From positions 1 to 25,288 of the IMG/VR virus record IMGVR_UViG_2565956635_000009: a stretch of 25,288 nt of DNA; one strand, written 5' to 3'. Below are positions 22,431 to 24,029 of the stretch, in pieces. Each line of letters begins with the position of its first letter. Position 1 is the stretch's first letter. The DNA is from a virus (lineage: Duplodnaviria; Heunggongvirae; Uroviricota; Caudoviricetes). The notes below the pieces were generated by a model. It ran no database searches. It was not told where the DNA came from and saw nothing but the letters and a program-made list of their open reading frames with translations. The translations under genes and the position numbers were made by a program.

Positions 22431-22730
22431 GTGAGAAAGTTAAGCCGACTTGAAAAATATCACATGAATAAGGTTTCAATGCGCAGTCCGTCAAAGATTG
22501 TCGCCGTTACTCCTGCGGCGATAGAGATCGAAAAACGCGCGATTGAAAGAGAGAAAAAAGGGCAGTTCCGCATTGCCGCTCACCTTTGGCTTCAGTGTAT
22601 GGATGTTGCTTCTGGTGATGTTGAACGTGCAAGGATCGCGGTTCGCAGGGACCAATGTATCACAAAAGGTAACGGCCTTCGCCGTGGCGACTATAGCGGC
22701 ATAGGATGTTGTGGGGTGGTTTATGACTAA
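22431..22730 (+). CDS. PerC-like transcriptional regulator homologue (99 aa)
   Basis: GTG start with AGAGAGG site; IEREKKGQFRIAAHLWLQCMDV ... RRDQCITKG resembles the PerC/Pch motif (LExxG.WRRAA..W ... C.xKG) as I remember it. Confidence 0.45.
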   Translation: MRKLSRLEKYHMNKVSMRSPSKIVAVTPAAIEIEKRAIEREKKGQFRIAAHLWLQCMDVASGDVERARIAVRRDQCITKGNGLRRGDYSGIGCCGVVYD

Positions 22731-23373
22731 GAAATACACACTAATCTATGCAGATCCACCCTGGGTATACCGGGACAAAGCCGCAGATGGTAATCGCGGT
22801 GCCGGTTTTAAATATCCGGTTATGAGTGTGCTGGATATCTGCCGCCTTCCTGTGTGGGATTTGGCCGATGAAAACTGTCTGTTGGCCATGTGGTGGGTGC
22901 CAACACAACCACTCGAAGCACTAAAAGTTGTTGAAGCCTGGGGATTCCGTCTGATGACCATGAAGGGCTTCACGTGGATAAAATGTGGTAGTCGACAACC
23001 AGATAAACTGGTTATGGGTATGGGACACATGACTCGCGCCAATAGTGAAGATTGCCTGTTTGCAGTAAAGGGAAAACTACCTCCACGCATTAATGCAGGG
23101 ATCGTTCAGTCATTTACCGCACCGCGGCTTGAGCATTCAAGAAAACCAGATGTCGTTCGTGAAAAACTTGTGCAATTGTTAGGCGATGTTTCTCGCATTG
23201 AACTGTTCGCCCGCCAGACGTCTCATGGCTTCGATGTTTGGGGTAATCAGTGCGAAGACCCGGCAGTGCAACTACACCCTGGATACGCGTTGGATATTGG
23301 CGGATTAACAAATGCATTCAGCAATGCTCCGCTGTCACCAACAGACAACCAGGGGCGGGAGCGTGCAGCATGA
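22723..23373 (+). CDS. DNA N6-adenine methyltransferase, MT-A70 family (216 aa)
   Basis: Catalytic DPPW motif in [10 protein letters not shown] near the N-terminus; GGGGTGG site; stop overlaps the next ATG. Confidence 0.8.
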
Positions 23374-24029
23374 ACCTATATCAACGCATCAATGGCGCTG
23401 ACTGGTGCAATATCTTCGTCGTCGGCGATCTGCATGGGTGCTACACGCTGTTGATGAACGAACTCGACAAAGTTTCATTCGACCCGGCGCGCGATTTGCT
23501 TATTTCCGTTGGTGACCTTGTTGACCGCGGCGCTGAAAACGTCGAATGCCTGGATTTGATTACTATGCCGTGGTTCCGAGCTGTTCGTGGCAACCATGAG
23601 CAGATGATGCTGGATGCACTGGTCAACGGCGGAAGTTTCGGACATTGGATGTCAAACGGCGGTGGATGGTGGCACCAACTTGATTCTGAGCAGGATGTGC
23701 AACTCAAATACCTTCTGCCAAAGGTTACCAACCTCCCGATGATTATCGAACTGGTTACCGGCAATAAGAAGGTCGTCATCTGCCACGCAGACTACCCGCA
23801 CAACGAATACGCATTCGATAAGCCAGTACCGGAAGAAATGGTGATATGGAATCGTGAGCGGGTTAGCGACGCGCAGGACGGTATTGTCTCGGAGATAACC
23901 GGTGCCGATTTGTTCATCTTCGGTCATACGCCAGCACATCACCCACTAGTGTATGCAAACCAGATGTACATCGACACCGGCGCAGTGTTCTGCGGAAATC
24001 TGACGCTTACCAAAGTCCAGGAAGGATAG
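23370..24029 (+). CDS. Ser/Thr protein phosphatase, lambda-phosphatase-like metallophosphoesterase (219 aa)
   Basis: PPP-family signature motifs GDLHG, GDLVDRG and GNHE; ATG at 23370 with GGGAG site, overlapping the methyltransferase stop. Confidence 0.85.

Follow-up and report, generated by a model that had tools for sequence, protein, structure and literature searches.

The adenine methyltransferase and serine/threonine phosphatase genes beside the integrase of this 25,288-nucleotide window, by which we mean the whole stretch of DNA analyzed, are taken together probably best explained as two independent accessory genes, one for a Dam-like GATC methylase and the other for a NinI phosphatase, at the distal end of a repressor-controlled early-left operon, both expressed upon derepression. 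Both are real and intact; they belong to the accessory genes of a prophage common in E. coli, and they are already annotated and already known. An earlier note on this DNA had recognized the two enzymes from catalytic motifs, described the methyltransferase as an orphan and the pair as translationally coupled beside the integrase, and joined them with a PerC-like gene into a coupled host-manipulation cassette. The gene identities and the orphan status hold, as do the overlap and the location beside the integrase, but the functional reading is weak.

The window corresponds to an epsilon15/phiV10-like (Uetakevirus) prophage of E. coli. Positions 22400-24100 are 100% identical to the chromosome of E. 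coli KC-Dl-1 over the 1.7-kb region compared, and in that strain guaA adjoins the prophage end. The same positions are 99% identical to phage vB_EcoP_PAS61, whose match to positions 1-25000 of the window covers 87% at 97.7% identity. The names methyltransferase, serine/threonine phosphatase and integrase are already present in the PAS61 and KC-Dl-1 records, and a PerC-family regulator is also named in the KC-Dl-1 RefSeq record. Because both enzymes come from well-studied families and identical or near-identical public sequences carry these names, their identification matters little as it stands.

The methyltransferase gene (22723..23373, + strand; ATG at 22723, TGA at 23371-23373) encodes an MT-A70 (beta-class) N6-adenine methyltransferase of 216 aa. 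Its product matches Pfam MT-A70 (PF05063) over profile positions 1-172 of 172 with an E-value of 5.8e-22 and 78.9 bits (cut-off 23.9), as well as PADLOC MTase_II (PDLC03262; E=5.9e-77), and the domain E-values of both this enzyme and the phosphatase lie far beyond chance. Catalytic motif IV, the tetrad DPPW, lies N-terminally in the catalytic domain (aa 11-14; nt 22753-22764) and is matched in the alignment by the DPPW of Tetrahymena MT-A70 family protein chains, which are the best solved relatives (E=4e-13); METTL3 is also a significant match. Past the catalytic core, which extends to about aa 177 (WGNQC), aa 188-216 form a C-terminal tail peculiar to this lineage; within the sequence encoding the tail are a Shine-Dalgarno-like site and the downstream start codon. 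The methyltransferase is an orphan, as the earlier note had stated, since no restriction endonuclease gene is adjacent to it, its neighbors being the PerC-like gene, the phosphatase and the integrase. The operon contains a single nuclease, a RecE-like PD-(D/E)XK exonuclease, which is paired with RecT. Phage T1 gp20, which was considered as another MT-A70-type enzyme, was rejected as such: it belongs to Pfam Dam (PF05869) and has no similarity to the window methyltransferase.

The phosphatase gene (23370..24029, + strand; ATG at 23370, TAG at 24027-24029) encodes a dinuclear metallophosphoesterase of the NinI/lambda-phosphatase type with 219 aa, which matches Pfam Metallophos (PF00149; E=1.2e-15) and PHROG 246 (NinI-like). 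The protein is 66.8% identical to lambda NinI, 78.5% to the phi80 protein and 79.5% to HK225 NinI. Its GDLHG (aa 19-23, nt 23424-23438), GDLVDRG (aa 48-54, nt 23511-23531) and GNHE (aa 74-77, nt 23589-23600) motifs, all on the + strand, together with the DPPW of the methyltransferase and the Pfam matches of both proteins, bear out the identities first proposed from motifs. The earlier note had also asked whether careful alignment would find catalytic residues mutated. None is: the phosphatase aligns with lambda phosphatase (1G5B) free of gaps over residues 1-217 (E=6.7e-100), and D20, H22, D49, N75 and H186, which we take to be further active-site residues of 1G5B, are identical in the two proteins, as are R53, H76, H139 and D202. 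The latter four are named as active-site residues of the lambda enzyme in the literature (PMC2190708). Lambda NinI (ORF221; 1G5B), HK225 NinI and phi80 NinI/Ppp share the three PPP motifs with the window phosphatase. The closest homologues with informative neighbors lie in lambdoid nin regions, beside NinE, NinG or NinH, whereas the window gene occupies a swappable cassette at the end of the early-left operon beside the integrase. Two chromosomal phosphatases of E. coli, presumably PrpA and PrpB, resemble the window protein in family and length; it scores 266.1 bits against the NCBIfam model PRK11439.1 (equivalog cut-off 326) and 221.5 bits against PRK09968.1 (equivalog cut-off 332), and since both scores are below the cut-offs it is not an equivalog of these proteins. 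The phosphatase is a predicted orthologue of the Mn2+-dependent phosphatase NinI of lambda.

Upstream of the methyltransferase lies the gene for a small PerC-like regulator (22431..22730, + strand; 99 aa from the GTG at 22431, with alternative starts at ATG 22464, used in phiV10, and ATG 22479, used in RefSeq), whose 3′ end shares 8 nt with the start of the methyltransferase gene. The product scores above the cut-off of Pfam PerC (PF06069; E=6e-7, 30.1 versus 22.6 bits) with a match limited to profile positions 5-50 of 90, and it matches PHROG 868 (E=5.7e-62); its score against the NCBIfam ANR model is below that cut-off. It is 70% identical to gp32 of Tyrion, and PADLOC gave no match for either the PerC-like or the AlpA-like protein. 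The GTG of this ORF is shared with an ORF for a 38-aa membrane protein (22318..22434, + strand; PHROG 17484, E=2.6e-27) that overlaps the AlpA-like gene through an ATGA and the PerC-like ORF through a GTGA. This small ORF is annotated in phiV10 and epsilon15 and is absent from the KC-Dl-1 RefSeq annotation.

A consensus scan of the operon identified a probable early-left promoter, TTGACA-17-AATTAT (19751-19779, + strand), and 5′ of it a terminator-like hairpin (19680-19699). Around the promoter, and partly overlapping it, lie two operator-like palindromes, ATTACC-N5-GGTAAT (19716-19732 and 19778-19794), whose half-sites are common to the annotated repressor-binding sites of epsilon15. The same approach detected no internal promoter or terminator in the operon, and we infer that the promoter at 19751-19779 would drive the operon that includes the methyltransferase and the phosphatase. 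With epsilon15-type operator palindromes on both sides of the promoter-like site that precedes it, the operon probably stays silent as long as lysogeny is stable. These promoter and operator assignments, and that of translational coupling, are predictions from consensus or homology.

The junction between the two enzyme genes (23357..23373, + strand), as read from the sequence, consists of a GGGAG Shine-Dalgarno-like site (23357-23361) and, further 3′, the ATGA at 23370-23373 in which the genes overlap, and the convergent integrase ends 2 nt downstream of the phosphatase. From the RecE-like nuclease to the phosphatase, however, five of the six junctions are overlaps of 4-8 nt (-4, -4, -4, -8 and -4). 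Short start/stop overlaps are the rule along the early-left operon, so the overlap is not special to the methyltransferase-phosphatase pair. The claim of a coupled host-manipulation cassette with the PerC-like gene loses its footing here, both because overlaps are generic in the operon and because the phosphatase is swappable, being present at 21 of 80 IMG/VR loci.

That interchangeability is seen in the comparison of related loci. Homology to the phiV10 and variant-C loci breaks at 23374/23375 and returns at 24049, which delimits a replaceable cassette of 673 bp (23376..24048, + strand) that spans the body of the phosphatase gene, the spacer of 2 nt and the final 17 nt of the integrase gene; its bounds lie just past the ATGA common to all variants and 17 nt inside the 3′ end of the integrase gene. 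Every slot variant begins at the identical GCAGCATGAA, and the junction sequence ...GGAGCGTGCAGCATGAA is identical 5′ of the DUF1382 gene, the phosphatase gene and the first ORF of variant C. Among the 80 IMG/VR loci, the slot holds a DUF1382 gene in 54, the phosphatase in 21, and an 82-aa ORF with an AntA antirepressor in five, while in epsilon15 it holds the serotype-conversion gene and in Tyrion a 68-aa ORF. E. coli relatives carry at least three alternative cassettes at the identical ATGA junction, one of which is the phosphatase. At 95% identity or more, the phosphatase cassette occurs in 146 of about 545 E. coli records with the flanks, and the phosphatase is present in about a quarter of the E. 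coli genomes that have the methyltransferase. The cassette is intact and of low diversity across the 146 records, and it adjoins the integrase in all of the E. coli matches listed.

The integrase itself (24032..25288, - strand; 418 aa) is a P4-type tyrosine integrase with Pfam Arm-DNA-bind_3, Phage_int_M and Phage_integrase domains; it is convergent with the operon, and its stop codon and that of the phosphatase are 2 nt apart. Its C-terminus varies with the slot variant, ending in ...ERWMEDSNK in the window versus ...EKWMAGE in phiV10. In our proposal, recombination would have placed a lambda-NinI-type gene, as a cassette of exactly ORF size, in the interval bounded by the stop codon of the methyltransferase and the 3′ end of the integrase. 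Since the 3′ end of the methyltransferase gene supplies a constant Shine-Dalgarno-like site and ATGA, any cargo in the slot would be translated by coupling. In position, and in content that varies among near-identical prophages, the slot resembles moron loci beside integrases, such as the serotype-conversion gene in the methyltransferase-integrase interval of epsilon15. It differs from them in that the window cargo has no detectable promoter of its own and is attached through the fixed ATGA junction, and in that the cassette also replaces the last integrase codons.

With respect to function, the methyltransferase, which is conserved in the genus, most likely acts alone, and after derepression it would place Dam-like GATC m6A marks on phage DNA as this replicates, with host DNA marked incidentally. 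Its methyl-transfer activity and its substrate, GATC in DNA or else RNA, are predicted from homologues (PMC10810198, PMC7556043, PMC6602927). Over aa 1-187 the protein is 83% identical to M.EcoPA8orf6770P of Stx phages, an enzyme with high similarity to M.EcoGV in the description of Gong et al. (2023; PMC10810198). For M.EcoGV, GATC specificity is listed (PMC6602927), and the overproduced enzyme is reported to methylate GATC in vivo (PMC10810198). PhiBZS1_p32 of Serratia phage BZS1 was shown in a dam- host to be GATC-specific (PMC7556043); with the HK639 homologue of this protein, the window enzyme shares 45% identity over the full length. These two proteins and M.EfaBMDam of Tn1549 (PMC7556043) belong to the same Pfam family as the window enzyme and are similar to it in size; like it, these GATC-specific MT-A70/beta2-class enzymes are orphans near a phage integrase. 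As the identity is only moderate, we infer GATC specificity from HK639 and PhiBZS1_p32 with caution. The window enzyme, the Tyrion/S9-5 group and HK639 do not have the same loop at aa 84-104, where HK639 carries an insertion of 23 residues, and for this reason GATC specificity may not transfer to the window enzyme. The number of GATC sites in the window (98 observed versus 98.4 expected) is neutral on this point.

The earlier note had expected the methyltransferase to create a new, protective methylation motif. The closest characterized homologues point instead to GATC or to partner-dependent 16S rRNA, and since neither Dam-like GATC methylation nor 16S rRNA methylation gives such a motif (PMC10810198, PMC6602927, PMC7556043), none is expected. 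Likewise, lysogens that show no new m6A motif would be uninformative, because host Dam would mask GATC and the gene may be silent.

The Stx-phage relative, M.EcoPA8orf6770P, lies at the center of the question whether such an enzyme methylates GATC in DNA or else 16S rRNA. It shares the DPPW and the int-proximal position in the early operon with the window enzyme, although its phage belongs to the Sepvirinae and the window phage is a podovirus of the genus Uetakevirus. Downstream it is followed by a DUF1382-type gene, as in phiV10-type relatives, where the window has the phosphatase; directly upstream it has the gene for PNB-2, where the window has the PerC-like gene; and its STEC-type tail after aa 187 (the last ~27 aa) is unrelated to that of the window enzyme. 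Because PNB-2 is missing from the window, the window methyltransferase is a clean test case for the catalytic subunit alone.

MT-A70 enzymes often require a partner, and the Tetrahymena MT-A70 enzyme works in a multi-subunit complex. On this model the window methyltransferase could be the catalytic subunit of a partner-dependent 16S rRNA m6A enzyme that tunes translation and prophage induction, with the PerC-like protein or a slot-encoded protein as its partner, a possibility that we judge to be unlikely and that draws on its catalytic core being 83% identical to the PA8 enzyme. The purified Stx-phage protein had almost no activity on DNA, unmethylated GATC DNA included, and needed PNB-2, the product of an overlapping upstream gene; with PNB-2 it was active on 16S rRNA, which it preferred, and the two together raised spontaneous induction (PMC10810198). 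The near-inactivity on DNA of a purified enzyme so closely related counts against a GATC methylase that acts alone. In the window, too, a small gene overlaps the methyltransferase start, and in Tyrion a winged-helix protein (Pfam HTH_24) encoded directly 5′ of the methyltransferase is reminiscent of PNB-2. However, the PerC-like protein gave no BLASTP alignment with PNB-2 of phage PA8 at E<=100, and we rejected it as a PNB-2 homologue for this lack of detectable similarity; moreover, the C-terminal tail that Gong et al. linked to PNB-2 binding is replaced after aa 187. Stx phages with an identical methyltransferase differ in the upstream gene, which in 06-3462 encodes 76 aa, and the PerC-like gene is separated from the methyltransferase by two genes in Tyrion and by one in epsilon15. 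When the small proteins encoded beside the methyltransferase gene of six phages were compared all against all by BLAST, the only matches were the expected ones, PerC with PerC, DUF1382 with DUF1382, and PNB-2 with the 76-aa protein of 06-3462, these last two having a 21-aa C-terminus in common. Close homologues of the methyltransferase have upstream neighbors that bear no relationship among themselves, and this speaks against a dedicated partner. Other members of the family methylate GATC DNA unaided in vivo (PMC7556043), and the rRNA assignment has a caveat of its own in that the plasmid for the PA8 'holoenzyme' also carried the DUF1382 gene.

A stand-alone DNA methyltransferase of non-GATC or relaxed specificity that gives real protection against a restriction system would agree with the orphan, Type II-like character of the enzyme (PADLOC MTase_II), with the variation of the putative substrate loop at aa 84-104 between relatives, and with the relaxed adenine specificity of another prophage methyltransferase, family aside, in the same Serratia study (PMC7556043). 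We nevertheless regard it as distinctly improbable: the characterized members that we traced, M.EcoGV, PhiBZS1_p32 and M.EfaBMDam, are all GATC-specific (PMC6602927, PMC7556043), and M.EcoGV, the closest of them, is by the account of Gong et al. similar to the enzyme that is 83% identical to the window protein.

Low probability of the same order attaches to a joint scheme in which the MT-A70/integrase junction is a plug-in hotspot, NinI serves in counter-defense and the methyltransferase is a PerC-like-dependent rRNA enzyme. Under this scheme, the fixed Shine-Dalgarno-like site and ATGA may let any captured ORF be expressed early; NinI may dephosphorylate the targets of kinase-based abortive infection or act as a 2′,3′-cyclic phosphodiesterase on RNA ends or nucleotide signals; and the MT-A70 enzyme could be an rRNA methyltransferase that depends on the PerC-like protein as its specificity subunit. 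A role of the phosphatase against kinase-based defense is conceivable at most. Literature searches found nothing relevant on a biological role of NinI or on phage-encoded phosphatases in defense, PADLOC gave no match for the phosphatase, and ninI is non-essential in lambda (PMC10695390).

Least probable of all, and very doubtful in our view, is a dedicated cassette in which the PerC-like protein, the methyltransferase and the phosphatase cooperate in restriction protection or host reprogramming and in disarming host kinase signaling or defense: the three genes are contiguous, co-directional and overlapping, their catalytic motifs are all intact, the slots of relatives hold accessory-type cargo (the epsilon15 serotype-conversion gene, the variant-C antirepressor) and the phosphatase cassette is well kept in E. 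coli, but about three quarters of the prophages with the same PerC-methyltransferase-integrase backbone have no phosphatase, the informative neighbors of the closest NinI homologues are nin genes and not a methyltransferase, overlaps are generic in the operon, the phosphatase is without a PADLOC match, lambda phosphatase has no established physiological substrate and is also a 2′,3′-cyclic phosphodiesterase (PMC2190708), and a GATC-type methyltransferase adds little protection in a Dam+ host.

Two independent accessory genes remain the preferred reading, and the natural variants of the locus could be of modest use. The DUF1382, NinI phosphatase and antirepressor-module forms are natural isogenic variants on the same backbone and could reveal a phenotype of a lambda-type phosphatase. 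To our knowledge, the biological role of these phosphatases has remained unknown since the 1980s. The slot types appear interspersed in a simple clustering of PerC-methyltransferase sequences. A scan of the collection with the 16-nt junction sequence was too unspecific as a search: of 120 loci, only 19 proved to be true relatives, and these fell into the three slot variants already described.

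An earlier note, made from the sequence alone, had placed an MT-A70 adenine methyltransferase gene and a Ser/Thr phosphatase gene next to the integrase gene of this phage, and both the coordinates and the family assignments held. ORF listing and direct reading gave a methyltransferase ORF of 216 amino acids (ATG 22723 to TGA 23371-23373, plus strand) and a phosphatase ORF of 219 amino acids (ATG 23370 to TAG 24027-24029, plus strand), which share an ATGA overlap; a Shine-Dalgarno-like GGGAG lies at 23357-23361 (+). The methyltransferase matches the Pfam MT-A70 domain over the whole profile (E=5.8e-22; score 78.9 bits, cut-off 23.9) and has DPPW at residues 11-14; its best sequence matches of known structure are chains of Tetrahymena MT-A70 family proteins (E=4e-13) and METTL3 (E=4e-6). 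The phosphatase aligned without gaps to residues 1-217 of lambda phosphatase 1G5B (E=6.7e-100); by this alignment and direct reading it keeps GDLHG, GDLVDRG, GNHE, H139, H186, and D202. R53, H76, H139, and D202 are documented active-site residues of lambda phosphatase (PMC2190708). The remaining residues of these motifs counted as ligands, and H186, are ligands in 1G5B. Upstream, a PerC-like ORF (22431-22730, plus strand; Pfam PerC E=6e-7) shares its last 8 nt with the start of the methyltransferase gene. Downstream, a complete P4-type integrase gene (24032-25288, minus strand; 418 amino acids) runs towards the phosphatase gene, their stop codons being 2 nt apart. Among the neighbouring ORFs in the window, no endonuclease gene adjoins the methyltransferase gene, which is thus an orphan, as the note had proposed.

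The window is a Uetakevirus podophage similar to epsilon15 and phiV10. Across 22400-24100 it shares 99% identity with phage vB_EcoP_PAS61, which covers 87% of window positions 1-25000 at 97.7%, and 100% identity with an E. coli KC-Dl-1 prophage beside guaA. The PAS61 annotation names an adenine DNA methyltransferase, a NinI serine/threonine phosphatase, and an integrase, and the KC-Dl-1 RefSeq annotation names a PerC family regulator, an MT-A70 family methyltransferase, a serine/threonine protein phosphatase, and an integrase. Because both annotations carry these gene names, the finding is in that sense already known; the methyltransferase-phosphatase pair exists as the note identified it, but it is ordinary and had been annotated before.

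What our analysis newly describes is a fixed ATGA docking junction followed by a hypervariable slot that rewrites the integrase C-terminus, an arrangement that is typical phage mosaicism and not a novel kind of system. Homology to phiV10 and other relatives ends at 23374/23375 and picks up again at 24049; the replaced segment begins directly after the common ...GGAGCGTGCAGCATGA and ends 17 nt within the integrase 3′ end. The terminal integrase residues therefore vary with the cassette, ending in ...ERWMEDSNK where the phosphatase gene is present and in ...EKWMAGE where the slot holds a DUF1382 gene or an antirepressor module, so that the final five to seven integrase codons (window 24032-24048, minus strand; 5169-5185 in phiV10 locus L002) are part of the swappable cassette. 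The slot holds a 64-aa DUF1382 protein gene in phiV10 and the majority of other relatives, the phosphatase gene in the window and part of the relatives, a module of about 1.26 kb that carries an 82-aa ORF plus a gene for an AntA-type antirepressor in others, a serotype-conversion gene in epsilon15, and a 68-aa ORF in Enterobacter phage Tyrion. Among 80 IMG/VR loci, DUF1382 occupied 54, the phosphatase 21, and the antirepressor module five. In complete E. coli genomes, at a minimum identity of 95%, the phosphatase cassette was present in 146 of about 545 records with the flanks, and all of the cassette matches listed abut an integrase gene. The dedicated PerC-methyltransferase-phosphatase unit for host manipulation envisaged earlier is not supported, since roughly three quarters of otherwise identical prophages have other slot content. 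Slot types appeared interspersed in a simple, crude clustering of PerC-methyltransferase sequences, and cassette diversity was similar to flank diversity, a pattern that may point to a long-standing polymorphism reshuffled by recombination and not to a single recent insertion. Since the convergent stop codons lie 2 nt apart and a terminator scan detected no terminator between them, early-left transcripts should continue antisense into the integrase gene.

The two genes form the distal end of a plus-strand operon that begins with two small ORFs, a RecE-like PD-(D/E)XK nuclease gene, recT, and an AlpA-type excisionase/regulator gene, and continues with genes for a 38-aa membrane protein, the PerC-like protein, the methyltransferase, and the phosphatase. 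There are six junctions from the nuclease gene to the phosphatase gene, and at five of them the neighbours overlap by 4-8 nt (ATGA, ATGA, GTGA, 8 nt, and ATGA), the sole gap being that between recT and the AlpA-type gene; the methyltransferase-phosphatase overlap is thus normal operon architecture and no sign of special pairing. A single promoter-like site upstream of the operon (TTGACA-17-AATTAT, 19751-19779), preceded by a terminator-like hairpin, lies downstream of the repressor gene between two ATTACC-N5-GGTAAT palindromes (19716-19732 and 19778-19794), the second of which overlaps it. A third palindrome of this type lies at 19004-19020, and all three have half-sites in common with repressor-binding sites annotated in epsilon15. 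We infer that the operon is probably repressed in the stable lysogen and expressed upon infection or induction. The 38-aa ORF (22318-22434, plus strand), overlapped by neighbours at both ends, belongs to PHROG 17484 (category moron/host takeover). The phiV10 and epsilon15 annotations include it, but RefSeq leaves it out of the KC-Dl-1 prophage, which is identical here.

Residues 1-187 of the methyltransferase are 83% identical to the Stx-phage MT-A70 enzyme M.EcoPA8orf6770P, to which M.EcoGV is highly similar according to Gong et al. (PMC10810198). M.EcoGV appears as a Dam homologue with GATC specificity in PMC6602927 and, when overproduced, is reported in PMC10810198 to methylate GATC in vivo. 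PhiBZS1_p32, a more distant family member whose HK639 homologue is 45% identical to the window enzyme, is GATC-specific in a dam- host, as is M.EfaBMDam of Tn1549 (PMC7556043). The main alternative, a partner-dependent rRNA methyltransferase, keeps a substantial minority of the probability: the purified PA8 enzyme has almost no activity on DNA and, when complexed with PNB-2, the product of its overlapping upstream gene, acts preferentially on 16S rRNA and increases spontaneous induction (PMC10810198). PNB-2, however, is absent from the window, and the primers for the "holoenzyme" plasmid (2056-3282 in PA8 locus L004) also take in the DUF1382 gene 3′ of the methyltransferase gene, the very gene whose place the phosphatase gene takes in the window lineage. 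Unlike in M.EcoPA8orf6770P, the C-terminal tail, which Gong et al. connected with PNB-2 (PMC10810198), is replaced after residue 187, and no similarity was detected between the PerC-like protein and PNB-2.

The upstream gene is not conserved across relatives: it is PerC-like in the window and phiV10, PerC-like followed by a 35-aa ORF in epsilon15 or by two small genes, one for a winged-helix protein, in Tyrion, and otherwise encodes the 143-aa PNB-2 in PA8 (L004, 2851-3282), a 76-aa protein in Stx phage 06-3462 (locus L003, 3274-3504), a 94-aa protein in S9-5, DUF4060 in Pocitis76, and replication protein P in Pm86. Given the absent PNB-2, this variable neighbour, and the GATC-specific relatives, we favour a stand-alone Dam-like GATC methyltransferase. 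Host Dam would mask GATC activity (PMC6602927), and lysogens probably keep the operon repressed, so the new m6A motif in lysogens on which the earlier note would have relied would not discriminate. A slot serving as a hotspot for counter-defence genes expressed early, together with an MT-A70 enzyme that acts with a lineage-specific partner, seems to us quite improbable.

The nearest phosphatase homologues with location-informative annotated neighbours all lie in lambdoid nin regions (identity 79.5% in HK225, 78.5% in phi80, and 66.8% in lambda), and ninI is dispensable in lambda (PMC10695390); the gene is therefore probably an orthologue of ninI that was taken up, as exactly one ORF, by the integrase-adjacent slot. 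The phosphatase had no match in PADLOC, and an anti-kinase role is possible but unsupported.

Several smaller observations concern the relatives. The 76-aa protein of 06-3462 and PNB-2 have only their final ~21 residues in common (...LYIDEFENAL) upstream of the same methyltransferase, so the 5′ side of the methyltransferase start is also a recombination junction. In Salmonella phage S9-5 (locus L086, 2001-3325), a C5-cytosine methyltransferase gene follows the homologous MT-A70 gene with a 4-nt overlap. In Pasteurella phage Pm86 (locus L088, 1986-4140), replication gene P precedes the MT-A70 gene and a Ser/Thr phosphatase gene lies three genes downstream; the two activities can thus share a phage early region without adjacency. 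The phiV10 "RecE-RecT fusion protein" differs from the window by one additional A in an A-run, CAAAACAGG against CAAACAGG (window 21040-21090; about 2640-2700 in L002), and may be either a genuine frameshift variant or the result of a sequencing error; the window, PAS61, and KC-Dl-1 have two separate genes, for the nuclease (window 20264-21085) and for RecT (ATG 21082), which overlap by ATGA. Finally, the phage carries a tRNA-Arg gene (anticodon TCT; window 9960-10036, plus strand), which accounts for the odd megablast matches between the window and tRNA-Arg genes of Synechococcus phage S-RIM2.
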